A DNA stretch of 64,000 nt from Candidatus Daviesbacteria bacterium (GCA_016186955.1 JACPKP010000004.1:71288-135287), one strand, 5' to 3'; positions 38,605 to 56,817 are shown, counted from the first letter of the stretch. A program made the numbers and translations. The notes: a model not told the origin generated them from the sequence alone.

Positions 38605-38626
38605 AATCCTTTTAAAAAAGAAAAAA

Positions 38627-38662
38627 GGCGGCCTGGTATAAAACCCGGCCGCCTCATGTTTC
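38627..38662. terminator. bidirectional rho-independent terminator between convergent genes
   Basis: 'GGCGGCCtggtataaaacccGGCCGCC' has a 7-bp GC stem. On the minus strand it is followed by TTTTTTCTTTTTT. Confidence 0.7.
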
Positions 38663-38683
38663 CGGCCTGAGCCGGCATATGCA

Positions 38684-38905: not shown

Positions 38906-39004
38906 AGCCTACCTCCAGTTGTAATAGTGCGGGGAATATTATAGCACATTTTGCCCTATAGTCAACCACCACCCTGGTATGAGTTCAGTTCCCCCCAGCA
39001 ATTT

Positions 39005-39032
39005 CGTCATTGCGAGCGTAGCGAAGCAATCT
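39005..39032. repeat. second copy (28/29 identity) of the right half of the uvrC palindromic mini-element. Related fragments are at 39192-39209 and 39243-39262.
   Basis: 'cgtcattgcgagcgtagcgaagcaatct' versus 19913-19941 'cgtcattgcgagcgaagcgaagcaatct'. Confidence 0.6.
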
Positions 39033-39276
39033 TATTGTTCAAACGCAATACTCCTGGCGTTGAGCCAGGAGATGAAGTTTGTACGAGCGGTAGCGAGTAC
39101 TCTGCGAAGCAGATAAAACAAGAACGATACCGCATGCGTAAGCTTGCGGTAATTCATTAGATCGCCACGGGGCGTACCATTTTGGTACATCCCTCGCGAT
39201 GACGTTTGATTGGAAAAAACTGAATAGTTACCCACCCTGCGTCCTGATAAATCGGGACCCGGAATGACATCGTAGG

Positions 39277-41583
39277 TTATTTGAGGAACTTAACAAACAG
39301 TTCCTTGCTGTTTATTTTGGGAGCAGTAATTTTTCCTTCACCGGGTTTAGTCTCTTCTGTTTGTTTACCTGGTCTTTGGTCATTTTCATCAGGATACGTC
39401 CTGCCTTTAATCTCAGGGGCAAATTTGCTCATGTCAATCGGTTTGTCCCCGGTGTGCTCCTTGGTGTAGCGCTCTCTGGAAGCCCTGATTGCTTTTTCCC
39501 GGTTCTGGGTTTTGGATTGGGGCAGGGGTAGGGATTGGGCGAAAAAAGGGGTGGAAGTCAGTCCGTTAATGGACATCTTCAAAAGCAGCTGGTAATTTCC
39601 CAAACTTAATAAATCTTCCTCCTTAAACCGTTCCCCAAATTCCCTTGCCATAATCGGGGTATCCTCCGCCCCGATAATAAAGGACATGATAGTACCGGCG
39701 TTACCAAAAATTGCCGAACGCACCAGAGGGTCAATTTGGGCAGTGTATTGGTTTGCCAGGATCAGGTTAAGATGGTATTTCCTCGCCTCTGATAAGATTT
39801 TGATAAATGAGGTGGTGGCGAAGTTTTGGAACTCATCAACATAAAGGTAAAAATCACGCCTCTCTGCCTCAGGTGTATTAACCCGGTTCATGGCAGCAAG
39901 CTGAAGCTTGGTAATAATCATTGCCCCCAAAAGCGCGCTGTTGTCTTCACCTATCCTTCCCTGCGACAGGTTTAAGATTGCTATTTTACCGTTGTTCATA
40001 ATGTCTTCCAGATTAACAGTGGATTTGGGGAATGCCACAATATTGCGGATAACTTTGGATGATAAAAACTGCCCAACTTTATTTAAGATAGGGGAGATTG
40101 ACTCTTCCCTTAATTTGTCAGGCATTTTTTCAAACTCATTTGTCCAGTAGTTGACCAAAACCGGGTCCTGCAAATCTGCCACTGTTTTCTTCCTGAATTT
40201 CTGGTTTGTCAGGATTTCCGGAACCATCATTAAGGTTGAACTTGGTACGGCGATTAAAGTTAAAATTACATTGCGCAAAATATATTCCAGCCTGGGCCCC
40301 CATGAATCCCCGTAAAGCTTGTAAAAAATAGAGACAATGCCTGAGGCTATCAACTCTTTTTGGGCAGGGTTTGTTACCTCGAGCGGGTTTAAATGAAAAG
40401 GCCTGTCAACGTCAGCCGGGTTTAAATATACTATATCGTTGACCCTGTAGGAGGGGATGTAATCAAGCAGCACTTCTGACAGATCCCCGTGGGGGTCAAT
40501 GACTGCCAGCCCTTCGTTGTTCCGGATATCATTGATTGCGAGGTTGGCGATAAGCGTGGATTTACCGGTCCCGGTTTTTCCGATGATATACATATGTTTT
40601 CTCCGGTCTATCTGGTATATCCCGAAAATTGAAGACTTATTTTTAAATTCGGTCCTGGCAAAAAAGTTAATGCCTTTTTTTTCATCATCCGTCAGCTCAT
40701 AGGCAACGGGTAGGTTTTCCGGGGGGTCGGAGAGGATCGTTTTTGACCAGGAAATATTGCCTATTGTGGCTATTTTTGTACCGGGGAAATGGTATATTGT
40801 TGCTATTTCCATAATGTTTAATATTTGGTTTCTGGGAATATACGATATTTCTCTTAAAAGGATTGCCCTAATCAGCCCTTTGTGCTGCCAGAAAAAAGGC
40901 CTGACCAATGAAAGGCTGTTACCGGTGACGTTGTTAAAACTTATAAATGTTGCGGCAACAAGGTCCATTAGCGCCGGGTTGGAGCTTTTGGTGAGTATCC
41001 TGATTGCTGTTTTAAAACCAGGATAAGCAACTTTGTCAGATATCTGTTTAGAGTATGTACTGACCATTAAAGTATCCGGGGTAGTCTCATCCTTGTTCCC
41101 CTTTGACTCCATCATCCGCTGGCCTTTTGACTGCCACTTTGAGTTGACAGGACAAAGCAGAAACTGGACAACCACAACATCTTCTTTGGCTATCCTGGTC
41201 AGTATCCCCAAAAGGGATGACATCGGGTCAACATCCTTAAAATCATTAAAACTTTTAAGGGGATACAAAAAATTATGCTGAAGTTTAACCTGTCCTGCTT
41301 CAATATCTTTTTTTTCGGAAAGCAATGCCTGAAGTCCATCATCCTTGACCGGGGTTACTAAAGCTTTAGGGTATTGGGAGAGCAGTTGACTTTCAATGTA
41401 AGTCTGGTAAGCCAGTGGTGCGGCTATATAAAAATGGATGGCCTGGTTTACAACAACTATCTCCAAACTGAAGGCAGTTTTTGCTTTGATGCTTGTCAGC
41501 GATGCTAAAAACTGTACCATAGCTTCAGGTGTTTCTTCACCTGTGCGGGGGGTTTTAATCTCGAGTATTATTTTTTGATGCAT
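39277..41583 (-). CDS. VirD4/TraG/TraD-like P-loop ATPase (type IV coupling-protein family)
   Basis: Walker A is 'IIGKTGTGKST' and Walker B is 'FYLYVDEFQNF'. Length and architecture resemble the TrwB/TraD AAA_10 family. Confidence 0.6.
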   Translation of the reverse strand: MHQKIILEIKTPRTGEETPEAMVQFLASLTSIKAKTAFSLEIVVVNQAIHFYIAAPLAYQTYIESQLLSQYPKALVTPVKDDGLQALLSEKKDIEAGQVKLQHNFLYPLKSFNDFKDVDPMSSLLGILTRIAKEDVVVVQFLLCPVNSKWQSKGQRMMESKGNKDETTPDTLMVSTYSKQISDKVAYPGFKTAIRILTKSSNPALMDLVAATFISFNNVTGNSLSLVRPFFWQHKGLIRAILLREISYIPRNQILNIMEIATIYHFPGTKIATIGNISWSKTILSDPPENLPVAYELTDDEKKGINFFARTEFKNKSSIFGIYQIDRRKHMYIIGKTGTGKSTLIANLAINDIRNNEGLAVIDPHGDLSEVLLDYIPSYRVNDIVYLNPADVDRPFHLNPLEVTNPAQKELIASGIVSIFYKLYGDSWGPRLEYILRNVILTLIAVPSSTLMMVPEILTNQKFRKKTVADLQDPVLVNYWTNEFEKMPDKLREESISPILNKVGQFLSSKVIRNIVAFPKSTVNLEDIMNNGKIAILNLSQGRIGEDNSALLGAMIITKLQLAAMNRVNTPEAERRDFYLYVDEFQNFATTSFIKILSEARKYHLNLILANQYTAQIDPLVRSAIFGNAGTIMSFIIGAEDTPIMAREFGERFKEEDLLSLGNYQLLLKMSINGLTSTPFFAQSLPLPQSKTQNREKAIRASRERYTKEHTGDKPIDMSKFAPEIKGRTYPDENDQRPGKQTEETKPGEGKITAPKINSKELFVKFLK

Positions 41584-41638
41584 ATGGGTCAGCCGGTACT
41601 CTTATATTTTAGCATTTTTAAGTGGGAAAGGGAAAGTT

Positions 41639-42244
41639 TTAGGGGATGGGGTTATCAGGCAGTTCCGGTATCTGGTTGATAAAATCCTTAATAAACCCAG
41701 GGACAGCGATACATTCCCCGGAGGTTTTTTCGGATTCATCGGATGGATCCGAAAAGTAGTATTCCTTGACGTAAACACCCGAGTCCAAAAAAGACCTAAC
41801 CACCCCGATGGTTTTTTCCTTAATCCATGGATCGGATGATATTAGGGGGTGAAGTAACCTGATGCGTTGAAGCTGTACCATGATATCGGTTAAAAAAAGG
41901 TTGGCAACGTCAAAATCTTTTACTTCATGCCCGATGAGAAAAAGTGTTTTAGCGACTTGACTAAGGATTGTGTTGTCTGAGTCTCCCCGGAATACATGAT
42001 GGTGTTTGGCCGCTATTAAAAGCAGGTCTGTGCTTAGGTCTGTAAAACCTAGACCCAGATTATCATCAATCTCCCCTTCAATGTTAAAGGTCAGTTCTGC
42101 CAGTTCACCAACCCATCCGTCAAAATCTGCAAGCTTTTTGTAGTTTAAGAATGTTCTAAGCAGGGGTGACTGGCTTAAAATAATCTCCTTGTGTTGATTT
42201 ATAGAAAATTCCGGACTTGCAGGCACAAATAAATTATATAGCAT
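41639..42244 (-). CDS. hypothetical protein
   Basis: 201-aa ORF. Confidence 0.4.
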   Translation of the reverse strand: MLYNLFVPASPEFSINQHKEIILSQSPLLRTFLNYKKLADFDGWVGELAELTFNIEGEIDDNLGLGFTDLSTDLLLIAAKHHHVFRGDSDNTILSQVAKTLFLIGHEVKDFDVANLFLTDIMVQLQRIRLLHPLISSDPWIKEKTIGVVRSFLDSGVYVKEYYFSDPSDESEKTSGECIAVPGFIKDFINQIPELPDNPIP

Positions 42245-42471
42245 TACTTAAGATGTTTTGCAATCAGCTTAAAAGCGCCGGCTAAAGTAAGCTTGCTTTC
42301 CAAATTTAACTTTATGCTATAGTTTAAATATGCCAAGAAAATACCTTTTAAAATTCTTACTTGCAGTAATTTTGGTAGCTTTTCTAGCAGCAGGCTGGCT
42401 TTATTATGACTATTACCAGAGGAACACGTATCAGGACAGGAATTATAATAAAAACCACCCTGCAGTGACAA
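42244..42471 (-). CDS. hypothetical small protein. It overlaps the plus-strand ORF 42330-42782, so one of the two may be spurious.
   Basis: 75-aa ORF that abuts the upstream gene. Confidence 0.2.
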   Translation of the reverse strand: MSLQGGFYYNSCPDTCSSGNSHNKASLLLEKLPKLLQVRILKGIFLAYLNYSIKLNLESKLTLAGAFKLIAKHLK

Positions 42472-42782
42472 TATATTTAAATGATGATGTCAATATTGGA
42501 CAGGTCAATACGCTCTTGGAGAACCTAAAAAGCACAAAAGGTCTGATCATGGTCCAGTACCTTACTAAAGAGGAAGCTTTTGGGGAATATAAAAAAGGGA
42601 TCCAAAATATCCCGCCTGAGGAAATCCAACTGACTGATGATGAGGTCAAACAAAGCCTGAGTCCTAAAGTTAATGTTTATCTTAAAAGTTCCGCCTCAAC
42701 AGATAGCATAAAACAGCTTGTTGAAAATAAATCTTTTATTAAGAATGTGGTATACAACCCAAGACCGCCAAAGAGTAATTAA
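42330..42782 (+). CDS. membrane-anchored protein resembling the FtsX extracellular domain (tentative)
   Basis: N-terminal TM segment followed by 'AVTIYLNDDVNIGQVNTLLENLKSTKGLIMVQYLTKEEAFGEY'. Confidence 0.4.
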   Translation: MPRKYLLKFLLAVILVAFLAAGWLYYDYYQRNTYQDRNYNKNHPAVTIYLNDDVNIGQVNTLLENLKSTKGLIMVQYLTKEEAFGEYKKGIQNIPPEEIQLTDDEVKQSLSPKVNVYLKSSASTDSIKQLVENKSFIKNVVYNPRPPKSN

Positions 42783-42978
42783 TAAGTAGAGCTTCTGGCG
42801 AGGTCTTATTTTCCCTTCATTTACCTTCTTTTAACTATTGTTAAGTAAGCGTTTTACCTGTACAATTATGCATAAACAGGCACGAGACGCGGTGTTGGCG
42901 CCTGCCCTGAGCGAAGCCGAAGGGAAAGACGCTATCACCGAGAGGACATTATTAAGCTAATAGCTAAAGAAAGTTAAT

Positions 42979-44258
42979 ATGAACGAGATTTAATTTCCAA
43001 AATTTATAAATCCATTTGTGATCTCCTTGGAGAAAACAATTGCATACAAATAGGTTCTTACCCCCGTCGTACAGCCATTACACCTGTTCACGATTTAGAT
43101 GTGCTTTATGTAATTGGCAATTGGGACGAGAACAGCCACGATCCCTCGACAGTATTACAAAACCTAGCCTCGCGATTTAACGATTATGTTAATCCGACTT
43201 CCTACAGCGTAGAATTGGGACCACCACAATCTCATTCGATTACAATCTTATTTAAGGACAATGCAGGTAAAGAAATACTTTCCATTGATATTGTTCCCAC
43301 ATACATTTTTTCGAAAAATGAATTTAATGAAGATACTTATAAAGTACCTGAAATTGCACGAAGAAGGCATGGGAAAAAGAGGACTCAATACTATCAAGAG
43401 CTTTCACTACAACATAAGGAAATGGGTTGGGTTGTTTCTGATCCAAGGGGATATATCCATGTTGCCTCCGAAACCGATACAGTAACGGGTGGTGAGTTCA
43501 GAAAAACTGCAAAGGTAGTTAAAAGGTGGAAAAATAATTTAGTGGCGGAAGATGAAAACCTTAAATTACAGTCTTTCCACATTGAACAGGTAATTACAAA
43601 TTACTTTAGAGAAAATAATTCACTTGAAATATTTGATGCTGTTTTTAATTTTTTTCTTGAGTTACCGGAAATTATAGATAATCCTAATCAAATTAAGGAT
43701 CGCGCTAATAATGGTAAATTCATTGACGATTATCTTGAACAATTTACCGACGAGCAAAAGAGCAAAATTAGAAGCGCGCGTGATGGATTTTTTATCAAAC
43801 TCGAAAGTTTCGGAGAAAATAATTCTATAGAGCAGCTATTTGAAATACTCTTTTATTCCAGAAAACCCACAGAGGAGTTTTTATTTGATAAAGGCATTAA
43901 GACATTTATTGATAACAGCTTAAAATTTAGGATTGATGGGTTTGTTAAACCGCTTTCGGGTTTTACTTCTGGCTGGTTAACAGAAACACCACATTTACAA
44001 AACGGTCTTACGAGAGGCGGAACCAAGAAAAGATATATAGAATTTAGAATAAGAAAGAACGAAACGCCTGCAGAAGAATATAGATGGAAAGTAAAAAATT
44101 CTGATACCTGCTTTCAGCCAAGAGGAGAAATAACACTTAATCGCACAAGGAATGACCCAGAGAGTACAGAATATGCCGGAAATCACTACGTCGAGTGTTA
44201 TGCAATCAAAAATGGTGATTGTATTGCAAGATCAAAAGTTCCAGTAAAAATTCTTTAG
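42979..44258 (+). CDS. cGAS/DncV-like nucleotidyltransferase (CD-NTase)-type Pol-beta NTase. Its 5' end is disrupted by a 1-nt frameshift at a T run (~42989-42996).
   Basis: Just upstream of the called GTG start, the 'G[SG]...D.D' motif 'IGSYPRRTAITPVHDLDVLYVIG' lies in frame. A third acidic residue occurs in 'SIDIVPTY'. A ~300-aa helical C-terminal domain follows. The ATG at 42979, with an RBS-like 'aaagaaag' upstream, reads M-N-E-I-stop. Adding one T fuses it to the downstream frame. Confidence 0.55.
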
Positions 44259-44267
44259 AATTTAATT

Positions 44268-45041
44268 ATGAAGAAGAAACAGAAATTTTTAGTTCCGATA
44301 TATGGCTTAAAAAAGAGCCCGAAACAAAGCATTAAATTAGATAAAAGTATTCTAATAAGACCAGTTGATATTTTTGCAGAAGAACAAAAACACTTTGAGA
44401 AATTCGGTTTGAAAGGAAGTTATGATGGAGTGTTGGAAGTTAATTATGAGTACGATTCAGACAATCCCAGTGAACCCTTCCCTGGTCTCTTTATAAATTT
44501 AATCAATAAGATAGATGCTTCGCTAGTTGTCTATGGAGACGGAGTTGTGGGAGTCGCGGGCGTTGTCCCAGCTCCTAACGAAGAATTTTCGGGAGGGGGT
44601 ATTCTTTCGTCATCAACAAAACCCCAATATGAAGAAAAGCTAGACAAAGAGATTGATGAAAACTTTGCAGCTTACTATAAAAGATTTGTTAAAGCCTATG
44701 ATATGCGGCCAGTAGCATTTGATGTTTACAGGCGAAGTTGTGATAGGTTCGCCAATAATGATAGGACTATAGATAGCTGTATTATTCTGGAAAGCCTATT
44801 TGTTCCTCCTAGCGAAAGGTCTAAGAAATCCTTTATTCTATATGGATTAAATATCTTAAAGTTTAGTACCGATGAAATTAAGGCTATAGATGATTTAATT
44901 GAATATCGCAATGCGATTATTCATGCAGATAGGAAAAAGCAGCTTAAATTACTATCTGGATCAAAATATACACATAAGTGGTTCGAGGATACTTTCAAGA
45001 TAATACGCAGAATTCTTTATAAATACATTGAGAGTCCTTAG
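44268..45041 (+). CDS. HEPN-motif protein. The C-terminal Rx4H motif 'EYRNAIIHA' marks a putative RNase effector, and the N-terminal ~150 aa is uncharacterised.
   Basis: An Rx4-6H motif sits at the end of a predicted helical ~110-aa C-terminal domain. The gene starts 10 nt after the NTase stop, in an operon-like arrangement. Confidence 0.4.
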   Translation: MKKKQKFLVPIYGLKKSPKQSIKLDKSILIRPVDIFAEEQKHFEKFGLKGSYDGVLEVNYEYDSDNPSEPFPGLFINLINKIDASLVVYGDGVVGVAGVVPAPNEEFSGGGILSSSTKPQYEEKLDKEIDENFAAYYKRFVKAYDMRPVAFDVYRRSCDRFANNDRTIDSCIILESLFVPPSERSKKSFILYGLNILKFSTDEIKAIDDLIEYRNAIIHADRKKQLKLLSGSKYTHKWFEDTFKIIRRILYKYIESP

Positions 45042-45093
45042 AATTGAAATGAAACACTTTAATTTGTCGCCGTCAACACTAGGTTTATCTAAA

Positions 45094-45216
45094 ATATGGT
45101 TAAATTATCGAGGTCTAAGTTAGAATTATTATTCGACTGTCCCCGTTGTTTTTGGTTATCTTGACTTTCGGGCTATAGTCCTGAGTCTTGCCGAAGGGTA
45201 ATTTATGGTTTAAAGT
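45094..45216 (+). repeat. copy 1 of the ~125-bp cassette-junction repeat (micro-ORF 45096-45164, MVKLSRSKLELLFDCPRCFWLS)
   Basis: Direct repeat shared with 48442, 49566 and 50728. Confidence 0.85.
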
Positions 45217-45222
45217 AAACTT

Positions 45223-45372
45223 ATGGCTAATGCTAGAAAGTTGCTGGTTAAATCTACGATATCTAGATTAGAAAAGAAAGATATACTTACAGAAATGTTT
45301 GAGAACTTTGGGATTAAAGTAATTACTGTAAGTAATCAGAACTCTAAGTCTGATAGTAGTAAGAGAAATTGA
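45223..45372 (+). CDS. conserved 49-aa small protein (paralog of 48569-48718)
   Basis: 'KKDILTEMFENFGIKVITV' versus 'KRDILTEMFEHFGIKVVDV' in the paralog. Confidence 0.4.
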   Translation: MANARKLLVKSTISRLEKKDILTEMFENFGIKVITVSNQNSKSDSSKRN

Positions 45373-45381
45373 AATAATACT

Positions 45382-45627
45382 ATGAAAAACGATTATCAAA
45401 TTGTCACTTTTAAAGATAAGAAAATTCGCCGGCATTGGGATGAAAAAACGGAGAAATGGTATTTTTCGGTGGTGGATATTATTGCCAAGAATTATAACCT
45501 CTCCGCCAAAAATCCAAATAATACAAATTCGGCCGTATACAAATCACCAAATGAAATCCTTATAAATATCCAAAACTCTGAGAAAAAAGTAAACCAAATT
45601 TTATCTGAGATCAAAGATTTATTGTGA
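45382..45627 (+). CDS. hypothetical small protein (possibly Bro-N/antirepressor-like)
   Basis: 81-aa ORF with 'IRRHWDEKTEKWYFSVVDIIA'. Confidence 0.3.
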   Translation: MKNDYQIVTFKDKKIRRHWDEKTEKWYFSVVDIIAKNYNLSAKNPNNTNSAVYKSPNEILINIQNSEKKVNQILSEIKDLL

Positions 45628-45717
45628 TGTTTTACTCTGTTGGAGTGAATTACTTCTTGATTTTTTATCCGGTTATAGTGTATTATATATACAGTTAGCT
45701 CGTTTTAGCCTCAAAAT

Positions 45718-47190
45718 ATGGCAAATATTGATGTACAATTACTCGCCCAATTAAAAACCTGGAATCCTTGGTGGCAACAAGGCAAAGATGGTATAGCCAG
45801 ATATAATGACCCGGTCTACAAGCGAGAACTGTATAGTAATGTAATTAGTCAATATAAACAAGGTAATCAAATTGTAAGTATTGTTGGTATGCGGCAAGTT
45901 GGTAAATCAACACTTATGCGACAAGTTATAAAAGAGTTGTTGGATGAGGGAGTTGACCCAAAAACAATTTTGTATATTTCCTTTGATGACCCTTTCGTAC
46001 GCATAAAATATGATAAAAAAAAGATTTTTGACATTGTGGTACAAACTTTTATAGGAGGGTTACTTCAAGAAGATCTTGATTCTTATAAAGGTAAATTATA
46101 TTTTTTCCTGGATGAGATACATCAACTGCCTGAATGGGAGAAAACTCTCAAGACCTATTATGACCGTTCGTTCCCTATCAATTATATGGTGAGTGGCTCC
46201 TCTTCCCTTCACCTTCAGTCAAAAAATAAAGAAAGCCTGCTCGGGCGAATTTCAGAACATGTCCTTTGGCCATTTTCATTCAGGGAGTATTTTGAATATC
46301 ATTCTGGTCAAGAAAAACAGGTTTCCGAAATCATTGAGGAAGCAAGACAAATATACAATAAATATATTACTACATTTGATATGGCTGAAACGTACCCATC
46401 TCTACAAGAAACATATAAAAAAGCTTTTGTTTGGAGTAAGCAAATCATAGAATCAAATCTTCAAAGATTTATTGTTTGCGGGGGATTCCCCCGGGCATGG
46501 CAGCAGCCTGATTTTGTATCCAGGCAGCGGATTTTATGGGAACAGCATGTTGGAAAAGTAATTTTTGAAGATCTGGTGCAAGTAGCAAGTATACGGAAAC
46601 CACGTGACCTAGAGTTTTTATTTACTTACATTATTGAAAATAATGGGAAAGAAGTAAAACTTGGAGAAATGAAAAGGAATCTGAATATTCACTGGGAAAC
46701 TCTGGACCGATATTTAAGCTATCTCATAAGGACATTTTTAATATTCAGAATCGAAAGGACAAAAACAAAACGGCTACTTATTAAGAGAAGGTCAGGGAAT
46801 GTTAAATTCTATCTGACAGATGTTGCCCTCCGCAACGCATTTTATAATAAAACAGAAGATGTTTATTTTGATTCCGAAGAAATGTCTTTCATCTCTGAGA
46901 ACTTAGTTTGTACAACACTCCAGAGGTGGCTTCGTGGCCCAAAGCGTGAAGAACAGGTATCCTTTTATAAAGATAGAAGTGGAGAAGTAGATTTTGTGTT
47001 TAAAGGTTTTAATACAATTATCCCAATCGAAATTAAGTGGAGAAGTGACATACCTCCTTTGAAAACACTAAAAAAAGTAGAAAATGCTTGGGATGTTAGT
47101 CAAAGTATTTTAATTACTAAGGATCAAGATCTTGATCTAAGGAGTGGAAGATTATCAATACCATTATGGTTTTTCCTACTGTGTTTTTAA
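45718..47190 (+). CDS. AAA_14/DUF4143-family ATPase
   Basis: 'VSIVGMRQVGKSTLMRQV' is Walker A. The length and C-terminal DUF4143-like region fit the family. Confidence 0.8.
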   Translation: MANIDVQLLAQLKTWNPWWQQGKDGIARYNDPVYKRELYSNVISQYKQGNQIVSIVGMRQVGKSTLMRQVIKELLDEGVDPKTILYISFDDPFVRIKYDKKKIFDIVVQTFIGGLLQEDLDSYKGKLYFFLDEIHQLPEWEKTLKTYYDRSFPINYMVSGSSSLHLQSKNKESLLGRISEHVLWPFSFREYFEYHSGQEKQVSEIIEEARQIYNKYITTFDMAETYPSLQETYKKAFVWSKQIIESNLQRFIVCGGFPRAWQQPDFVSRQRILWEQHVGKVIFEDLVQVASIRKPRDLEFLFTYIIENNGKEVKLGEMKRNLNIHWETLDRYLSYLIRTFLIFRIERTKTKRLLIKRRSGNVKFYLTDVALRNAFYNKTEDVYFDSEEMSFISENLVCTTLQRWLRGPKREEQVSFYKDRSGEVDFVFKGFNTIIPIEIKWRSDIPPLKTLKKVENAWDVSQSILITKDQDLDLRSGRLSIPLWFFLLCF

Positions 47191-47196
47191 ATCTAT

Positions 47197-48420
47197 ATGA
47201 AAAATAACTGGCCAATTAAAAAATTAGGAGAGGTTTGTAAGGTTTTTGCTGATGGTGATTGGATCGAAAGTAAAGATCAGTCATCAAGCGGAATTCGTCT
47301 TGTTCAAACTGGGAATATTGGGAGGGGTATTTTTTTAAATAAAGGAGGAAAATCAAGGTTTATCTCTGAACAAACTTTTAAAAGGTTAAACTGTACAGAA
47401 ATTCTTCCAGGAGATTTGCTGATATCACGGTTACCTGATCCAGTTGGTCGTTCCTGTATAATTCCTGATACAGGAACAAAAATGGTAACAGCTGTTGATT
47501 GTACCATTGTCCGTGTGAATGAAAAATTAATACTTAGAGATTTTTTGCTGTTATACACAAATAGCTCAAATTACTACACTCAAATTCAAGCTCATTTATC
47601 AGGAACGACCCGCAAAAGAATAAGCCGAGGAAATTTATCACAAATTGAAATCCCTCTCCCACCACTTTCAGAACAAAAGAAAATTGTGGCGAAACTTGAG
47701 AAATTGTTGGCGAAAGTGAATGAAGCAAAAAAGCTCCGCGCTAAAGCGCAAGAAGCCGCGAGTCAGCTCCTCCCCGCCGAATTCCACAAAATTTTTGAAG
47801 AAGGAAGAGAAAAAGGATGGGAGGAAATAGATTTTGGTGATAAAAAATACATTGAGATTATAGATGGTGACCGAGGGAAAAATTATCCAAAAAAAAGTGA
47901 TTTTACACCTGAAGGCTACTGCCTTTTCTTAAATACAAGTAATGTAAGACACGGATCTTTTAATTTTTCTAAATGTGATTTTATTTCAAAGGAACGAGAT
48001 GAAATATTACGAAAAGGCAAATTGAAACGTGGCGATGTAATATTAACTACTCGAGGAACTCTCGGTAACTCTGCATTTTTTGATGATAAAGTACCTTTCG
48101 ACAATATGAGGATAAATTCTGGAATGGTTATATTGCGCGTTAATGAGAAAGTACTCACTCAACGTTTTTTACTGTATGTATTAAACTCACCAAATGTCAT
48201 GGATTTGATTAAGAAGGCGAACTCAGGCAGTGCTCAGCCGCAACTACCGATTCGTGTGTTATCAAAATACATTTTATACTTCCACCCATCACAGAGCAAA
48301 AAAAGATAGTTGCACGACTGGACTTAATTTCCGAAAAAGCGCGTCAACTTCAAGACTACCAAAAATCCACCGAGCGCGATCTCCTCACCCTCGAACAATC
48401 AATTTTACACAAGGCTTTTT
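47197..48420 (+). pseudogene. hsdS: type I restriction-modification specificity subunit HsdS with two target-recognition domains. It is frameshifted near the 3' end (~48265-48282, a T4 run), and no hsdM or hsdR is in the window.
   Basis: TRD1 ends with 'IPLPPLSEQKKIVAKLEKLL'. The frame stops at 48309, but the conserved 'ILPPITEQKKIVARLDLISEKARQL...' continues in another frame to 48420. One extra T restores the full-length protein. Confidence 0.8.
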
Positions 48421-48441
48421 AAGGAAGATTAGTAAATTAAA

Positions 48442-48563
48442 ATGATTAAATTATCAAGGTCTAAGTTAGAATTATTATTTGACTGTCCCCGTTGTTTCTG
48501 GTTATCTTGACTTTCGGGCTATAGTCCTGAGTCTTGCCGAAGGGTAATTTATGGTTTAAAGTG
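48442..48563 (+). repeat. copy 2 of the cassette-junction repeat (micro-ORF 48442-48510)
   Basis: Read from the sequence. Confidence 0.85.
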
Positions 48564-48568
48564 AGGTT

Positions 48569-48718
48569 ATGCTTAGCAAGAAAAATCCAGAGATTGAAAC
48601 GATAAAATCCAAACCTGAAAAAAGAGATATCCTGACGGAAATGTTTGAACACTTTGGGATTAAAGTAGTAGATGTAGGTTCTCAAATCCCAAAGGCCAAC
48701 AGGAAAAGAAAGGGATGA
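48569..48718 (+). CDS. conserved 49-aa small protein (paralog of 45223-45372)
   Basis: See the paralog entry above. Confidence 0.4.
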   Translation: MLSKKNPEIETIKSKPEKRDILTEMFEHFGIKVVDVGSQIPKANRKRKG

Positions 48719-48725
48719 AGTAAAG

Positions 48726-49565
48726 ATGAAAAAGATAATTACCAAAGGAATAAAAGTGTATACGTTTCAGCAAAATGAAATAGATTACATCTCCCTCACT
48801 GATATTGCCAGGTACAAAGATAAAGAAAGAACAGACTATATCATCCAAAATTGGATGAGGAATAGAGAAACTATAGAGTTCTTGGGTATTTGGGAACAAA
48901 TCAATAATACAAATTTTAAACCCATCGAATTCGATGGGTTAAGAAAAAATGCAGGATTAAATAGTTTTTCACTTACTCCTAAAAGATGGGTCTCTTCTGT
49001 CAATGCCATTGGCATTATTGCAAAATCGGGCAGATATGGAGGTGGGACATTTGCACACAAAGATATTGCTTTTGAATTTGCTTCCTGGATTAGCGCTGAA
49101 TTTAAGCTTTACTTGATTAAAGAATTTCAACGACTCAAAGTTGAGGAAAACGAGAGGTTAATTTTAGGTTGGGATGTTAAGCGTCAGCTGACCAAAATTA
49201 ATTATCTTATCCATACAGATTCCATTAAGGAAAACTTAATCCCTCTGTCAATTACTAAAAATCAAGCCAAAGTCATTTATGCCTCGGAAGCAGATATCTT
49301 GAACGTGGCTTTGTTTGGTAAAACCGCAAAAGAATGGCGCGATGAAAATAAGGATAAAGATGGTAATATCCGTGATTATTGTGACGTTACACAATTAGTA
49401 GTTTTGGCTAATCTTGAAGGTATTAATGCCGAGCTAATTCGTCAAGGCTTGCCTCAATCTAAGAGATTAGTTCAACTAAACCAGATCGCTATCTCCCAAA
49501 TGCAATCTTTACTTGGTAATGCCTCAATAAGCAAAGCTTTTCTACGAATAAAGAAATTAAAATAA
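48726..49565 (+). CDS. KilA-N domain protein
   Basis: 'ISLTDIARYKD...NWMRNRETIEFLGIWE...GGTFAHKDIAFEFASWISAEFKLYLIKEFQRL'. Confidence 0.75.
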   Translation: MKKIITKGIKVYTFQQNEIDYISLTDIARYKDKERTDYIIQNWMRNRETIEFLGIWEQINNTNFKPIEFDGLRKNAGLNSFSLTPKRWVSSVNAIGIIAKSGRYGGGTFAHKDIAFEFASWISAEFKLYLIKEFQRLKVEENERLILGWDVKRQLTKINYLIHTDSIKENLIPLSITKNQAKVIYASEADILNVALFGKTAKEWRDENKDKDGNIRDYCDVTQLVVLANLEGINAELIRQGLPQSKRLVQLNQIAISQMQSLLGNASISKAFLRIKKLK

Positions 49566-49686
49566 ATGATTAAATTATCGAGGGCTAAATTAGAATTACT
49601 TTTTGAATATCCCCGTTGTTTCTGGTTATCTTGACTTTCGGGCTATAGTCCTGAGTCTTGCCGAAGGGTAATTTATGGTTTAGAGT
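49566..49686 (+). repeat. copy 3 of the cassette-junction repeat (micro-ORF 49566-49634). It starts immediately after the KilA-N stop codon.
   Basis: Read from the sequence. Confidence 0.85.
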
Positions 49687-49695
49687 AGAATTTAT

Positions 49696-50727
49696 ATGAA
49701 AAAAGGCAGACAAATTATTAAACAAAATAGCTTCACCGAGTTTTTGCTTTATACAACGCCAAATGGAAAAGTAAAGGTAGAGATATTTCTTCATAATGAA
49801 AATATCTGGTTAACTCAATCTAAAATAGCAGAGCTTTTTGGAGTGCAGAGGCCGGCAATTACCAAGCATCTAAAAAACATATTTGAGACTATGGAGTTGA
49901 ACGAGAAATCAGTTAGTTCCATTTTGGAACATACTGCCAAAGACGGTAAGAAGTACAAAACCCTATTCTATAACCTTGATGCGATTATTTCGGTTGGATA
50001 CAGAATAAACAGCTCTCAAGCAACGCAGTTCCGTATTTGGGCAACAGAAAGACTTAAAGAATACATAATTAAAGGATTTACCATGGATGATGAAAGACTC
50101 AGGGATCCCTACAATATCTTTGGAAAAGATTATTTTGAAGAACAACTTGCCCGAATAAGGGATATACGTTCAAGCGAAAGGCGTATGTACCAGAAGATCA
50201 CTGATATTTACGCACAATGCAGCGCTGATTACGATCCAAATGAAGAAATTACCAGGCAATTTTTTGCGACAGTGCAAAACAAACTCCATTTTGCGATTAC
50301 CAATAAAACTGCCGCAGAGATAATACACGAAAGAGTAGATAGCGCCAAACCATATATGGGGCTCACTGTTTGGAAAAATTCTCCAAAAGGTGCTATTCGG
50401 GAATCCGATGTCATTATTGCCAAAAACTATCTTAATGAAAAAGAACTGGATCATTTAAATAGAATTGTTACCATGTATCTTGATTATGCAGAAATGCAAG
50501 CCGAGCGTGGGATTGTCATGTATATGAAGGACTGGGTAGCAAAGCTGGACGCCTTTCTTAAATTTAATGAGCAACAAATACTTAGTGACACTGGACTCAT
50601 AAGCCACGAGGTTGCAGAATCTCTGGCCTTGAAAGAATTTGAAAAATATCGCAGGGAGCGGGACAAAAACTACATATCAGATTTTGACCGCGAAATGAAA
50701 AAACTTTTGAAGAGAGCAAGGAAATAA
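49696..50727 (+). CDS. RhuM-family protein
   Basis: 'YNLDAIISVGYRINSSQATQFRIWATERLKEYIIKGFTMDDERL' is the hallmark RhuM block. Confidence 0.85.
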   Translation: MKKGRQIIKQNSFTEFLLYTTPNGKVKVEIFLHNENIWLTQSKIAELFGVQRPAITKHLKNIFETMELNEKSVSSILEHTAKDGKKYKTLFYNLDAIISVGYRINSSQATQFRIWATERLKEYIIKGFTMDDERLRDPYNIFGKDYFEEQLARIRDIRSSERRMYQKITDIYAQCSADYDPNEEITRQFFATVQNKLHFAITNKTAAEIIHERVDSAKPYMGLTVWKNSPKGAIRESDVIIAKNYLNEKELDHLNRIVTMYLDYAEMQAERGIVMYMKDWVAKLDAFLKFNEQQILSDTGLISHEVAESLALKEFEKYRRERDKNYISDFDREMKKLLKRARK

Positions 50728-50787
50728 ATGATTAAATTATCGAGGTCTAAATTAGACTTACTTTTTGAATGTCCCCGTTGTTTCTGG
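50728..50787 (+). repeat. copy 4 (truncated) of the cassette-junction repeat. It starts immediately after the RhuM stop codon and diverges into GC-rich sequence.
   Basis: Read from the sequence. Confidence 0.8.
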
Positions 50788-50902
50788 GAGCGGGTGAGGG
50801 GAGTAACAACCTTTCGTTTCGCGAAAGAACGTTGCCCCGATAAATCGGGGTCGAACAGCTTTGCACTCCGTGCTGCGCAGCCTAACTCTCCAACCACCCT
50901 TT

Positions 50903-50935
50903 CAAACAGAAAAACTGGCCACAAGGACCAGTTTT
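50903..50935 (+). terminator. rho-independent terminator
   Basis: 'aaaaACTGGccacaaggaCCAGTtttttg' is a hairpin followed by a T6 run. Confidence 0.55.
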
Positions 50936-51158
50936 TTGTTCGAGAGCGGGTAATGACAATCTGTTCGAACTTTATTTAAAAACCTTTAATGGTTTGATGC
51001 AATGTTTTAGACCCTACCCTCAGGTTTATTCTTTTTGATGCTTGATGTGTTTTTAAACTTAAGGCCTTCTACAAAATCCTCTAATACTGTCGTTAATCTG
51101 GTTAAAAATTAATCCATATTTTCTGACATTAGATTATCTGTGACGGTTACTTTATGTT

Positions 51159-51362: not shown

Positions 51363-51595
51363 TCTACCATAAATTTGACTTTCGGGTAACCTATGGTATT
51401 ATTAAAATAATAATTACTTTGCTTCACAAAAAGCGGTAATTAGGTTTTAGATTTGCTGGGTCTTTAGAAGGAGCACAGGAATCTAGGAATCTGACGTTCA
51501 CTTAAGAAAAAGAAATGCGGTCGCAAGACAAACAGCTTTTTCACTTGGACTATTGCAGGTTCTTGGACTTTTGTGCTTTTTTAATGTAAAAAAAT

Positions 51596-52111
51596 ATGCA
51601 AACTTTTGAGTGGAAAACAGACAACCTAGACGAAATGGCCGTGAGAATGGCTCAAATTAGAAAAAATCAAACTGAAGAAACTGAGGCAATCAATTTTAAC
51701 AGGGACTCTAACCCCTTAAATGGTGGAGAAGCTGGTGGGGCGACAGAGGGGATGTGGAAGTACCTTAAAGAGGCACAGGGTGATAACAATAAGGAAAAGT
51801 TCATGGAAGCTAACTCGACTGGTGCTGCTATTGACCGTTTGAGGGAGCAAAAGACAGAGGGGAAAAAGGAAGATTCCAGGACCCAATGGCAAAAAGATCA
51901 AGATATGGCAAGGGAGTTGAGGAATCCTAACTGGAGAGCAGAGTACGAGGCTTCAAGAGGTTTTGATAGGGCCGAATATTTGGCAGCGTTGCCAGTAGTA
52001 CAGAATGGAAAAACATATCATAAAGACGGCAGGGTGTGGGCCCGACAGGATTGGGATGCACTAAAGGAAAAACATGGACAACCGAAGCATTATCAGGGAA
52101 AGGAGGGTTAA
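51596..52111 (+). CDS. hypothetical protein in the mobile/phage-like block
   Basis: 171-aa charged, helical ORF. Confidence 0.4.
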   Translation: MQTFEWKTDNLDEMAVRMAQIRKNQTEETEAINFNRDSNPLNGGEAGGATEGMWKYLKEAQGDNNKEKFMEANSTGAAIDRLREQKTEGKKEDSRTQWQKDQDMARELRNPNWRAEYEASRGFDRAEYLAALPVVQNGKTYHKDGRVWARQDWDALKEKHGQPKHYQGKEG

Positions 52112-52114
52112 TTT

Positions 52115-52300
52115 ATGAAGACAGCAAATGATAGATTTTTTGTACATAATATTGAGTTCGAGCCTGATGCCGGAGCAGAAATGCTCAAGAAACAATGGGC
52201 GATAGGTTTGGATACAAAGAATCATGGAAAATTAAGTGGAGAGCGGAAACGAAGTGCCTATGCTCAGAAAGCTAATAACTCTTTGACAGGAGAAAGATAA
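52115..52300 (+). CDS. hypothetical small protein
   Basis: 61-aa ORF 3 nt after the upstream stop. Confidence 0.3.
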   Translation: MKTANDRFFVHNIEFEPDAGAEMLKKQWAIGLDTKNHGKLSGERKRSAYAQKANNSLTGER

Positions 52301-52303
52301 GAT

Positions 52304-53368
52304 ATGGCTATACCATTGCAACTCTTACCTAATGTCTTTAATGCAGCCCAAAAAGCTGTAGGACAGCTATCCCAACCCGTATATCAGGTAGGGAAAACAG
52401 CACAACAATTTTTTAATCCAGGTGGAAATGCACCCCAGCGATTCGGTCCTGTTAACCCCCCAACAGATCAGGGTGATTATCTAGAGCAAGTCCCCTCAAT
52501 GAACATTCCAGAATTGGATCTAAGCCCATACATCGAGCAGCAACAGCGGGAAATGGAGCTGGCACAAGCCGGATATAGCGAAAATATTGCAGAAATAGGA
52601 TCGCAGACTGAAAAACAAAAGGGGCTAATCGAAGCAAACAAACAATCGGCCTTGGGTGATCTGGCCTCAAGCCAGGAACAATCACAAAACACTGCGGAAA
52701 GGGCAATCAATGAAGCAAGGAGGGCGCAGGCGGAATTATCTCAGGGATTATCAGCCAGATATGGTACAGGTGTATCAACAGGTCTTGGAGCTCAAGCGAT
52801 CCTGGGAGCTCAAACAGTCAAAAATATTGGGGAGACTCGCCAGAGCCTAGCTGCAAGATTGGGAGAAATTCAAAAAAGAAAAGAACAGGTAACAAACGAA
52901 GCTAACAGACTGGTACTAGATGCTGACCAACAAGCGGAAGTATTGAAACAAAGAGCTTCGGTTGCCTTGAAAGAGGGTTTGGCAGCAGCCAGTAGGTACA
53001 GACTAGAAGGAACTCGCGCCAGGCAGGATCTTATAAATTCATATATGAGCCAGTACCGGGATATTGTTGCAGGGGTCAACGCTAGAAATGCAGCTTTTAA
53101 GCAGGCTATCGCAAAACAATTAATGGCTAATGAAATTTCTCTGAATAAATATTACCAAACTACAGCTACTGCAAGAGATACTGTAGATTTAAATGATAGA
53201 TTTGCATTATATAAAGCTGGAAAATTGTCTGCCCCGGCAGTTGACCAGCTTGAGCAAGACGCACAACTCCCTTCGGGTTCTCTGATCAGATCAACAGAAA
53301 TAGACGAAAACGATCCTTTCGCTGGATTGAAGAAAATCTCACAGGTTGGGATTGGTAATCTTGCATAA
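52304..53368 (+). CDS. hypothetical coiled-coil protein (phage structural or scaffold-like, tentative)
   Basis: 354-aa Gln/Ala-rich helical sequence tightly packed with its neighbours. Confidence 0.4.
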   Translation: MAIPLQLLPNVFNAAQKAVGQLSQPVYQVGKTAQQFFNPGGNAPQRFGPVNPPTDQGDYLEQVPSMNIPELDLSPYIEQQQREMELAQAGYSENIAEIGSQTEKQKGLIEANKQSALGDLASSQEQSQNTAERAINEARRAQAELSQGLSARYGTGVSTGLGAQAILGAQTVKNIGETRQSLAARLGEIQKRKEQVTNEANRLVLDADQQAEVLKQRASVALKEGLAAASRYRLEGTRARQDLINSYMSQYRDIVAGVNARNAAFKQAIAKQLMANEISLNKYYQTTATARDTVDLNDRFALYKAGKLSAPAVDQLEQDAQLPSGSLIRSTEIDENDPFAGLKKISQVGIGNLA

Positions 53369-53374
53369 TTATGT

Positions 53375-56300
53375 ATGGCACTTCCCTTTTTATCGGATAT
53401 AGAACAAAAAATCACAGATGCTAGAGATGCAGCGCAACGCATTTTGAAGCAACCTCAAAATTTTATTCAAGGTTTTAAACCCTCCGCAATAAATACCCTA
53501 AACACAATTACAAAAGCTGTATCAAGCTATCTGCCACAGTATGCACCCCAAACCCAACAGGTTAAGCCACAACCATTGTCTGCAATTAGAAAACAAGCAG
53601 AGAATTATTTAAACGCAGGATTAAACACAGCACAAAATTATGGAAACTATTTAAAGACTGAGGGGAGAAGATTGACCAGCCCGGAGTTCTTCAAACCAAA
53701 ATTCACTTTCGCAGATGAAATTAAAAATCCAGTGCTTAATTTTGCTGCACAGATCCCTCAATCTATTTTAAACGCACCCATTAACACAGGCGAGGGATTA
53801 GTTAATCTACCCAGGTCAAAATCCCCACAACAGGTTATTTCTAACGCAGCCAAGATTGCAGACTTACCCCTAACTTTGGCTACTTTTGGAGCTGGGGGCA
53901 CTGCTTTAAATATTGGCAAGCAAGGATTAAAGTCATCAATTTTGAAAGGTGGGTTAGAAGGGTTAAAATACGGTGCTGCTTATGGTGGTTTGTCTGGTTT
54001 GCGGGAAGGCGAGAATCTTAATTTGGAGGAACAATTAAGAATAGGGGCTGAAAGGGCAGTATTGGGTGGTGTAGGAGGGGCGGTTGTAGGGGGAGTGGTA
54101 CCATTGGTAGGTTATGGAATTGATAGGGGCGGTAAATTTGTTGTAAAAATCATGGGAGATGAAAAGGGTTTTGTTAAAATTCCGGGTAAAAAACCACCTA
54201 TTTTAGCAAAAGCGATTGAAGACGCAATTAATGGTGATGATTTAGCAAAAGCCCAGGATATTATTGACAAGTTACCTGATAAAAACCCCTATAAAGCCCC
54301 GTTTCAAAGCACACTAAATGCTCATATTAAAAACCAAAGTACAGCAGGGAAATATTCATACAATATCAATTTAGACAGACTAAAGCTATCGCCAAAAGAA
54401 AAAAAGGTTTTCGACACAAGAATTTCTACTGCAAAAAACATACTAGAAAAAGCCAAGGGGCAGAAGCTAACGGATGAAGAAGTGATTAATGCTGCAAAAA
54501 CCTCAGAGATTTTACAAAACGTAACTTCTAGGGAAGACACAGTGAGAGCTAATGCTGCTATGCTTAGAGCCCGCCAAAATATGGTTGAGCTTGATAAAAA
54601 CCTTGATGTTTACATTAAAAAAGGAAATGTCTTAAAAGCCCGGACAACAATGGCCGATTTGGTTGACTCTCTTAGGGTTGTTTCTTCTGAAGCAGCGGAC
54701 AGAGGACGGAAATTACAGAGCTTGTCTATTGAAGCCGGAGATGAAAGTTTAAGAAGTCAGGTTTTAAGAAGTATTGCTCGAGTTGAAAATGATAGCAACA
54801 GGATAGCAAAAGAAGCCTTAAAAGTTAACTGGAATAATGCAAACTCGATTACTACTTTCTACCGGCAGTTTGTCAAACCCAGCACAGGGGAGATATTGGA
54901 TGAGTTTAGGTATAATAACATCCTCTCTAATCCTCTTACCCACGAACGGAACGCATTTTCAAATCTCATCCAGACCTTTATATCAAGACCACTAACCCTG
55001 GTAGTACAAGGTGATATAAGCGGTGCAGGCAGATATTACAAAGGTGCGTTTGGGAGTTTTCCTGATGCTATAAAAGCATTTCAGGACTCGTTTTTAGGGA
55101 AGGGATTGATTCAAAAGCCCGATTTATCGAGGTTATCGACCAAAAAAATACCGGGAGCCTTGACAATCCCCACCAGGGCAATGGAGGCCTCAGACAGATT
55201 TTTTCAAACAATAATCTCATCCGGTGAAAGAGCACGAGGTGTCAGCAGCAAAGAAGCGGAAAAGATAGCCCAGTATTCACTATTCAGATCCATTTTAGAC
55301 CCTTCAAATAGAACAGGGCAGGGAGTGTTATTATCAAAAATTGATAACGCTACATTGGGAATTTACCAACTGGGGGAGAAGGTGCCAGGTCTCAGATGGT
55401 TCGTTCCTTTTTTGCAAACTCCGATGAATGTCGCAAAACAGTGGCTTGAATATTCCCCAGGGGGTTTTGCGACAATCCCGGGAGCAGCCAAGCCAAAAGA
55501 ACAAATTGCAAAAGCCGTGATTGGATCGGTTATAACTGCGATGGGTGGTTGGTTAGCCAGTCAAGACAAAACAACCTGGTCAGCCCCGGTTGACCCTAAA
55601 GCAAAAGAGCTTTTCTATGCTTCAGGCAGGAAACCTTTTAGTATTAAGGTGGGTGATGCTTGGGTGCCAATGCCATTTTTAGGGGTGTACGCCTTTCCGG
55701 TTGCGTTAGCTGCTGCTGCAAAGTATTATCAGGATGAGTCCAGAACGGCATTGACTGATTCACAGATTGAGAGGTTGACCAAAGGGGTGTTTTCTATGAC
55801 TGAGTTTTTTAGTCAACAGACTTTTATGGAGGGGCTTGGTAATTTCGTTTCTCTGGTCAAAGGTGATAAAGATTATTCTCTGCCGGCAAACCTGGCATTT
55901 ACCGCACAACAGATAATACCCTTAAATGGGCTGGTAGGTTACATAAGCCGAATTTTAGATCCTATCTTCAGGAAAGCAGATGGTGAAGGTATTGGTGGTA
56001 AATTTATTGCTGGAGTCCAAAGGAATATTCCATTTCTCTCAAGTGGGCTTCCGGCTTATACAAACCCCTTGGGTGAGGAATCCAGACGGAACATTTCAAG
56101 CTATCTTGCGCCCTATGCTTTGGGAGTTCAAGACAAGAGGTTTGAACAACAGTATCAGGGTAGGGAGATCTTGCTACAAAGTAATGATGTTTTGAATAAA
56201 ATCGATGATGCGATAGTAAATGGGAGAGTACCAACAGGGGATCCGGCATTAGTTGAATTTAGGCAAGCGGAATACTATTACAAAAAAATATTAAACAGAG

Positions 56301-56578: not shown

Positions 56579-56817
56579 GTGTTTGGGTAATCTTCGGGAC
56601 TTGAAGCCGAAATAGACGGTATTTTGGGCTTTGTATGGCCAGAAAACGGAAGAGATCCAGAGGGTAGGAATATATCTAAGGAAAAAAGTTATAATCCCCT
56701 ATTATTTTTTTCAATGATTAAATTGTTAGCTTCAAGGTAGGACCAAAAATCACCATAAAAAGATTTCTCAACATTTTTAGCTAGGAAATTAAAACGGGAG
56801 TAAAATAGCTTCAAAAA

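Follow-up and report, generated by a model that had tools for sequence, protein, structure and literature searches.

Repeated seams in a Candidatus Daviesbacteria defence island probably join a relic nuclease 5′ end to the promoter region of the next module

The repeat units and the genes between them

A short sequence recurs four times between defence-type genes in the genome of a Candidatus Daviesbacteria bacterium, on a stretch of 64,000 nucleotides (nt) that we call the window (GCA_016186955.1 JACPKP010000004.1:71288-135287; positions are counted from its first letter). A first-pass annotation, made from the sequence alone, had read this repeat as a conserved 22-codon micro-open reading frame (ORF) followed by a promoter-like tail, and had proposed that it marks either serial insertions at the start of a nuclease-like gene or a junction module that organises a cassette array. 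Here, we show using repeat searches, alignments, profile searches and comparison with related loci in public genomes and metagenomes that the two halves of the repeat have separate identities, the head being the 5′ end of a Cas4-like nuclease gene and the tail the region that elsewhere precedes a three-part module of small gene, RhuM or KilA-N gene and nuclease gene. The identity of both halves and the recurrence of the module are solid, while neither a selected micro-protein nor an integron-like site finds support.

All genes of the array lie on the plus strand. Ahead of the first repeat are an oligonucleotide cyclase of the type found in cyclic oligonucleotide-based antiphage signalling systems (CBASS), with an AGS_C sensor domain (42978..44258), and a HEPN-like protein (44268..45041) with a weak RiboL-PSP-HEPN match; this gene pair plus a head recurs on a Logan contig (L006; related loci are given by such L numbers). 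Between the first and second repeats lie a gene for a 49-aa protein (45223..45372), a chimeric ORF of 81 codons (45382..45627), an AAA_14/DUF4143 ATPase gene (45718..47190; PADLOC candidate PDC-S01, 1e-63) and hsdS (47197..48422). The second repeat is followed by another gene for a 49-aa protein (48569..48718), identical to an annotated protein of a Candidatus Daviesbacteria metagenome-assembled genome (MAG), and by a KilA-N gene (48726..49565; PDC-S22, 5e-130), and the third by a RhuM-family gene (49696..50727; PDC-S05, 2e-145). The PDC-S05, PDC-S22 and PDC-S01 hidden Markov models match over their full length, which makes these proteins candidates for a role in defence.

The type I restriction-modification (R-M) system in the first interval is incomplete. 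Only the last ~57 codons of hsdM are present (45454-45627; matching residues 435-491 of HsdM in 5ybb_A, E 4.6e-4), fused to an N-terminal stretch of ~24 codons that is Bro-N-like by eye only, and the chimeric ORF thus records the deletion of most of hsdM. The hsdS gene is frameshifted near 48250: its main frame closes at 48309, and the conserved C-terminal helix (..EQKKIVARLD..ILHKAF) continues in another frame, the true C-terminal one, which reaches to 48422. It could be a pseudogene or reflect a sequencing or assembly error.

A repeat search of the window returned a 133-nt family at 45093-45225, 48439-48571 (94%) and 49563-49695 (87%), and a second family of 66 nt that brings in an additional member at 50722-50787. 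Alignment resolves these into a head of 60 nt, running from ATG to TGG, in four direct copies (45096..45155, 48442..48501, 49566..49625 and 50728..50787), and a tail of 61 nt (TTATCTTGACTTTCGGGCTATAGTCCTGAGTCTTGCCGAAGGGTAATTTATGGTTTAAAGT, opening with TTATCTTGAC and closing with TAAAGT) behind the first three (45156..45216, 48502..48562 and 49626..49686). Tails 1 and 2 are the same sequence and tail 3 differs from them at one position, so that these tails are 0-1 nt apart; copy 4 diverges at the first base past its TGG (50787) and is without a tail. Pattern searches that tolerate mismatches recover the same copies and no others in the window, and none of 100 shuffles reached the observed numbers of matches (three for the tail pattern, four for the head pattern). 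The four copies reported in the first-pass annotation are therefore real, as are three of their starts, whereas the ATG of copy 1 lies at 45096 and not at 45094.

Heads 3 and 4 directly adjoin the TAA of the KilA-N and RhuM genes (TAAATG), as had been noted, while head 2 begins 19 nt past the stop of the shifted hsdS C-terminal frame and head 1 begins 54 nt past the HEPN stop. Copies 1-3 do contain the 22-codon ORF, whose TGA falls within the nearly identical tail; in copy 4 the same frame stays open for 83 codons. Pairs of heads differ at 4-9 of 60 nt. Seven of the 11 variable columns are third codon positions and five alter an amino acid (I2V, S7A, E10D, D14E, C15Y), so the description of the differences as mostly third-position holds only loosely.

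Origin of the head and the tail

Where does the head come from? We scanned viral contigs, one genome per species and JGI metagenomes with a degenerate DNA pattern built on the last 13 head codons (nt 22-60), which yielded 24 genome loci, 62 metagenome loci and one viral locus (L003). In most of these loci the head opens an ORF of 220-231 aa (MIKLSRSK[IL]ELLF[DE]CPRCFW-FYAGKGIARPFGAPYTINNAVDF...), and the intact genes have the head in common at the DNA level. The intact homologue in L003 (6626-7297, minus strand) matches PF12705 (E 4.8e-12), Cas_Cas4 (PF01930; 4.3e-5) and the PADLOC Cas4 models (9e-11); these matches span the catalytic core of the full-length relatives' protein and pertain to the intact relatives, not to the window. 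Among proteins of known structure the intact nuclease has no close relative. It is encoded by Patescibacteria (Daviesbacteria, Levybacteria, Collierbacteria, Saccharibacteria and others) and by uncultured Gammaproteobacteria, with the gene intact in dozens of MAG loci; a phage collection contained no homologue, and a plasmid collection contained one distant homologue in an uninformative context. A tblastn search of the window with an intact 223-aa homologue matched all four heads, at 76-90% identity over residues 1-20/21, and found nothing of the nuclease body anywhere in the 64 kb. Head 1 thus corresponds to codons 1-20 of the nuclease gene (MVKLSRSKLELLFDCPRCFW), as does head 2, and because only these residues match, the micro-ORF is best described as a 5′ stub: the gene is real, but its body is missing from the window. 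Judged by these alignments, the peptide is the N-terminus of a PD-(D/E)XK/Cas4-like nuclease, a stronger statement than the resemblance originally claimed, and the full-length gene with this start, which had been named as something to look for, exists.

The context of the intact gene also accounts for the position of the heads. The gene upstream is a type IIG-like methylase of the Eco57I/MmeI type in ~16 loci and hsdS in L060; in several loci the nuclease gene adjoins RhuM, before or after it, and it is also found behind KilA-N. Its ATG often overlaps the preceding stop codon as ATGA, so the heads abut stop codons because the intact nuclease gene starts that way.

The first-pass annotation had taken the synonymous differences between copies as a signature of purifying selection on the micro-ORF. 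This does not stand: the synonymous differences in the window are alleles that are also found in intact nuclease genes of other genomes, and the third-position pattern was therefore inherited from working genes and is no evidence for a selected peptide. Amino-acid changes that are private, meaning absent from all intact heads, occur in 10 of 20 distinct stub sequences compared with 3 of 47 intact ones (Fisher 1.3e-4). In the window these are S7A and C15Y in head 3, which removes a conserved Cys, and E10D in head 4; elsewhere they include W20R, C18R, P16S and F13S, and other stubs have lost the start codon, carry a W-to-stop change at codon 20 (L030) or have internal deletions (L087). By this measure the stub peptide is under relaxed constraint, and damaging changes such as C15Y, a lost start codon or W to stop are about ten times as frequent in stubs as in intact genes. 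Head 4 is 3 nt away from the closest head that leads into nuclease coding sequence (L032, on a contig that ends 33 nt past the head).

The tail has a different origin. In related loci a conserved box (TTGAC(T)TTCGGGTA, also given as TTGACTTYCGGGTA, or TTGCCGAAGGGTA) is followed by a −10-like hexamer, and the end of the box lies 21-22 nt ahead of the ATG of a small gene in L097, L103, L105, L107, L108/L110 and L111; the box likewise precedes RhuM itself in L023/L070 and an intact nuclease gene in L012. Tail 1 consists of a 5-nt joint (TTATC), an upstream box (TTGACTTTCGGG), an extra element of 25 nt and a proximal box (TTGCCGAAGGGTA) that lies 22 nt ahead of the ATG of the first small protein; the box variants in the tail region are TTGACTTTCGGG and CCGAAGGG. 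The corresponding sequence in L105 (TTGACTTTCGGGTAATTTATGGTTTAAAGT) is the window tail minus the internal 25 nt, an element that is present in L108 and twice in L110, and farther upstream L108 contains a related 26-nt unit in 2.9 tandem copies. Tail 3 is followed directly by RhuM, without a small gene, and its proximal box ends 25 nt ahead of the RhuM ATG. Since the position of the box ahead of the small gene or RhuM is conserved in seven other locus types, we assign the tail to the promoter region of the next module, as a putative promoter. The TTGCCG-N17-TAAAGT element pointed out at first pass aligns to the conserved box and −10 of other loci and would therefore be its proximal promoter. 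These hexamers score 8/12, under the threshold of the promoter scan, which shows no enrichment of promoter-like sites in the region; several loci have better hexamers at the conserved position, for instance TTGACT-17-TATGTT in L097. The short distance from the box and −10 to the ATG suggests a leaderless transcript, as far as spacing alone can indicate this. We also considered the tail as decayed nuclease codons 21-29 with an insert of ~30 nt, and dropped this idea as L105, L108 and L097 show it to be the small-gene promoter region. The tail had no match in viral contigs.

The small ORFs behind tails 1 and 2 are 41% identical to one another and belong to a family of 43-56 aa with an invariant core (EKRDILTEMFEHFGIKV), of which the first carries the variant EKKDILTEMFENFGIKV; the family has no Pfam entry. 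A structure model of the 49-aa protein was poor (one helix; predicted local distance difference test score, pLDDT, of 65). The small gene directly precedes RhuM or KilA-N in every context that we retrieved (L097-L103, L105, L107, L108), and its product may act together with these defence candidates or regulate them.

The arrangement in which stubs bound cargo genes recurs in about a dozen unrelated metagenomic loci, as was expected if the repeats mark cargo boundaries. In L008/L051 the order is methylase, KAP NTPase, head, RhuM, head and a 128-aa gene, in L030 it is head, RhuM, head and another gene, and in L044, L063 and L080 heads separate RhuM paralogues. L069/L071 reads head, RhuM fragment, nuclease paralogue, head, RhuM fragment. 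L108 has a head stub behind RhuM and, after a gap, an unrelated PD-(D/E)XK protein. RhuM followed by the nuclease or its stub is thus found in the window, L008/51, L030, L044, L063, L069, L080, L105 and L108. Two loci combine a stub with a full gene, in line with the earlier suggestion that an insertion at the nuclease 5′ end leaves a stub while a full gene is kept or restored: L022 has a methylase, a stub, a 192-aa gene and an intact nuclease gene, and L105 has seven codons of a nuclease paralogue, the promoter box, a small gene, RhuM and then the full paralogue at TAATG. This second paralogue (MSQYYNPNRT..LSRSKI.L...CPRCFY; L105 1679-2434, and also in L087 and L069) plays the same role as the main family, sitting behind RhuM at TAATG and likewise leaving 5′ stubs. 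The closest relative of the window array is L087 (OBEQ010498784.1), in which a cyclase 85% identical to that of the window is directly followed by a decayed head, with no HEPN gene, and then by KilA-N, a head, a fragment of the nuclease paralogue (MSQYYNP...), an ATPase, a 5′-truncated head and RhuM. The window cyclase lacks the first 21 codons of this homologue. L087 is thus a helpful reference for working out the sequence of events.

Assembly of the array

What could have produced such an array? We consider it probable (about 0.62) that the unit of ~121 nt is a seam, in which a relic 5′ stub of the nuclease gene is joined to the promoter of the next module, within a defence island built by recombination. 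The module would consist of a promoter, the 49-aa protein, RhuM or KilA-N and often the nuclease at its close, and the window would hold three such modules in tandem behind the CBASS-like pair, the first of which also contains the decayed type I R-M genes. Each nuclease gene of the window would have been reduced to its 5′ stub, the final one running into a structured, terminator-like segment. A module may have displaced the nuclease body near the 5′ end of that gene, giving one junction of head and tail; unequal homologous crossing-over between this stub and the 5′ end of the next nuclease gene would then have duplicated the segment from tail through cargo to head, and cargo could later have been swapped, with promoter and head serving as homology arms. 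By this inference the array was most likely built by homologous recombination between seams, and a dedicated recombinase would be unnecessary. The three junctions of head and tail are identical, although the head alleles that they join differ (copy 1 resembles copy 2, and copy 3 resembles copy 4) and also occur in other genomes; a single junction that was then multiplied fits this best.

Several observations count against the seam interpretation. No intact nuclease gene closes the array in the window, and the promoter activity, the transcript and the steps of recombination are all proposals drawn from sequence comparison. Six of the 10 classes of break point fall within 8 nt past codon 20, which is far from uniform and not what simple decay predicts; this crowding is in part due to ascertainment, as described below. 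In addition, similarity between stub and intact heads is no lower than among the intact heads themselves, and heads have ~93-97% DNA identity where neighbouring cargo proteins are 38-65% identical. Either the stubs are young, or they are held similar by conversion, or they are under constraint, possibly some constraint at the DNA level. Within the window, finally, the tail is better conserved than the heads (0-1 of 61 nt versus 4-9 of 60).

In a rival reading, modules of promoter, cargo and head would be moved site-specifically to a point just past nuclease codon 20, leaving a stub and rebuilding the gene each time, by an enzyme that could be the candidate tyrosine recombinase at 56818-57723 or the nuclease itself, breaking its own gene. 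Several unrelated right-hand sequences indeed join the head 0-7 nt past TGG, the combinations of stub, insert and full gene in L022 and L105 have the form that such a system would leave, and L008 and L030 have a block of ~1.24 kb in common, from the ATG of one head to the spacer behind the next, with ~93% identity and unrelated flanks. The integrase is 6 kb downstream of the array, and distant homologues of it lie ~5 kb from intact nuclease genes in L003, L037 and L045; these three loci are, however, close relatives of one another, and no recombinase family recurs near the arrays. Among 49 large ORFs in 12 stub-bearing loci, the 25 Pfam families listed of the 48 matched include no recurring recombinase family (the 23 others have at most two members each), and the recurrent neighbours are R-M methylases. 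The unit itself shows no attC-like fold beyond shuffles (DNA z −0.07, RNA z −0.54) and no Rfam match, which agrees with the absence of a palindromic attC noted at first pass, and the mutually unrelated right-hand sequences of the junctions have no common core (GTTRRRY-like). A partial copy at 56714-56737, which had been taken as a hint that the repeat is the att site of the integrase, does not hold up: it is a match of 11-13 nt, at chance level, and does not appear in a search with the head profile at E<=10, while the best repeat flanking the integrase element is an 11-mer, expected by chance.

The break points themselves are hard to reconcile with one precise insertion site. Breaks directly at TGG (+0) are found in the RhuM-type spacers, in L022 and at head 4 of the window; the RhuM-type spacers have an exact 12-mer in common with a second spacer type, and both types therefore probably derive from one event. 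The window tail and L087 break at +2 to +4, and other loci at +3, +7, +23, +29, +35 and ~+130. As the search pattern required nt 22-60, shorter stubs were invisible to it and the sample is biased toward codon 20; in stubs that were found by way of the small protein instead, the break falls at nt 51 in L108 and at codon 7 of the paralogue in L105. One exact site after codon 20 thereby finds no support, and on this set of junctions we conclude that breaks concentrate near the 5′ end of the gene (its first ~100 nt) rather than at one nucleotide. An imperfect palindrome across the break region (TTTCTGG-N7-CCGGAAA) is kept slightly better than in synonymous shuffles (6.26 versus 5.61 of 7 pairs), yet it is mostly forced by the F-W and A-G-K codons and the tested sequences are non-independent, which makes it weak evidence for a break signal. 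Taken together, we regard a dedicated cassette system as unlikely.

Still less credible is a series of complete modules in tandem, each of which lost its redundant nuclease body by an independent deletion, with no insertion into a nuclease gene. The full nuclease gene does alternate with RhuM in L069, L050/85 and L023/70, and truncations of various lengths exist, but the identical junctions of the window point to one event that was copied rather than to three separate deletions, and the stub in L105 has a promoter context of its own in place of a RhuM upstream. The alternative to which we give least credence is that selection keeps the stub as a functional micro-ORF, either as an upstream ORF that hands ribosomes on from one stop to the next start (translational coupling) or as a small peptide with a regulatory role. 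Stubs do show good conservation at the DNA level, in most loci their ATG adjoins or overlaps the preceding stop (TAAATG, ATGA), and in the RhuM-type seams of other genomes their stop lies within a few nt of the RhuM ATG. However, this tight layout of start and stop is that of the intact nuclease gene, the stop in the window is ~50-60 nt ahead of the next ATG with a putative promoter between, and stubs tolerate start loss, an internal stop, internal deletions and loss of the Cys residues.

A more far-reaching variant, which we consider quite doubtful, is that the seams function within a recombination system by which R-M-embedded defence genes are shuffled in Patescibacteria and other bacteria. 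Breaks would then occur preferentially within the first ~25 nuclease codons, perhaps at the palindrome and perhaps made by the nuclease or its partner methylase system, and break repair would copy in a foreign segment of promoter, small protein, RhuM or KilA-N and nuclease 5′ end. If true, this would amount to an integron-like acquisition of cassettes without an integron integrase.

Surroundings of the array and relation to known systems

Behind head 4 the nuclease body is replaced by a G+C-rich folded segment (50788..50985, plus strand). Three hairpins closed by a long stem (minimum free energy −71.9 kcal/mol, z −4.2, with 0 of 200 shuffles as good) are followed by a terminator-like hairpin with a T-run. 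Nothing in Rfam matches the segment and none of the retrieved loci has a similar sequence; it could be a structured RNA of a new type or a small mobile insert. Over the whole window Rfam 15 returned only two tRNAs at gathering score, and weak matches near the elements (E >= 0.86) fall outside both the repeat unit and this segment. Farther downstream a fourth copy of the box (51375..51402, plus strand; TTGACTTTCGGGTAA) reads TTGACT-16-TATTAT, the best promoter-like site of the region, and precedes four plus-strand ORFs (51596-56578) of 171, 61, 354 and 1067 aa. The three large ones have no Pfam, NCBIfam or PADLOC match, the 61-aa ORF has no match in a Pfam scan, the only one run on it, and profile searches found no HsdR-type domain in 51596-56578. 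The four ORFs may constitute a so far undescribed defence operon that is controlled in the same way.

The tyrosine integrase is a 301-aa Phage_integrase/SAM-like protein on the minus strand and the only recombinase nearby. Together with two small minus-strand ORFs, plus-strand small ORFs and a D5_N/DUF5906/Pox_D5 primase-helicase it occupies 56818-62818, which resembles a small integrative element with a satellite-like layout, whose ends were not found. A motif that is part of the 25-nt element of the tails (CCTGAG-N4-GCCGAAGGG) also occurs at 42906-42924, ~55 nt upstream of the point where the cyclase loses its 21 codons relative to L087, and may be a short repeated element tied to points of rearrangement. 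Upstream of the cyclase, 35307-42782 encodes an HTH protein, a metallophosphoesterase-domain protein, a 768-aa HerA/TrwB-type ATPase and a short FtsX_ECD protein; lying between housekeeping genes (to ~35.2 kb) and the defence region, it is probably the left part of the island.

Among the housekeeping genes, a thiolase-like gene and a DUF35/OB-fold gene (23258-25134) stand beside a polyprenyl synthase gene as a trio of the mevalonate-pathway type. These genes also occur on Logan contigs of runs SRR12113384, SRR12113422, SRR12113424 and SRR12113430, which therefore contain this organism. The HEPN protein and the thiolase gene were matched only on short Logan contigs (runs SRR121134xx/SRR12113384), and exact look-ups of the RhuM and KilA-N proteins of the window found nothing.

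How does this arrangement relate to known systems? The PADLOC PDC candidates were defined as genes embedded in R-M, BREX and DISARM loci by 'guilt by embedding' (bioRxiv 10.1101/2024.01.29.577857), and the presence of RhuM-like genes within R-M operons had been pointed out in 2013 (PMC3710099). The cargo of the window fits this description, with PDC-S05, PDC-S22 and PDC-S01 amid remnants of hsdS and hsdM. In the discussion of the first study, what embedding means biologically 'remains to be explored', and a genomic sink is the sole idea proposed for its origin (bioRxiv 10.1101/2024.01.29.577857); term searches of both papers found no reference to seams, common promoters, a small partner protein or a Cas4-like nuclease partner (bioRxiv 10.1101/2024.01.29.577857; PMC3710099).

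Like an integron array, the window presents single, promoterless-looking genes in one orientation with a short element recurring between them, and cargo varies among related loci. It differs in that the unit has no attC-like fold and no common core, that modules bring their own promoters and that the repeat is a gene fragment; no IntI was identified in the window, where the nearest recombinase is the integrase described above. Islands that accrete at att sites of the tRNA or tmRNA type are similar in that direct repeats of a gene terminus bound successive inserts and in that the stub differs in allele from the restored gene (L022, L105), whereas here a protein gene contributes its 5′ end, the inserts span 1-3 kb and lack integrases, and the breaks fall at varying positions. 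In IS26-type arrays and in cassette exchange by flanking homology, as at P2/P4 defence hotspots, directly repeated identical sequences separate the cargo and can mediate its excision, insertion and swapping; the repeat in our array is 60-121 nt, comes without a transposase and would need host recombination. The arrangement, as read from these comparisons, is most consistent with a modular defence island built by recombination, which fails the integron-defining tests for attC fold and core.

In conclusion, how RhuM-like and KilA-N genes become nested in R-M loci is still open, and the window together with about a dozen unrelated metagenomic loci suggests that small defence genes travel as modules, with a common promoter, often a 49-aa partner and a Cas4-like nuclease at the end, and that the 5′ stubs of this nuclease gene join neighbours. 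The case is also a caution: a conserved micro-ORF whose copies vary synonymously can be an inherited relic instead of a peptide under selection. Should the seams be no more than relics, they provide a useful annotation of a defence island and nothing further; as they stand, they offer concrete sites at which recombination can be examined, and, judging by the recurrent module, PDC-S05 and PDC-S22, listed as 'single-gene' candidates, may in fact be systems of two or three genes.

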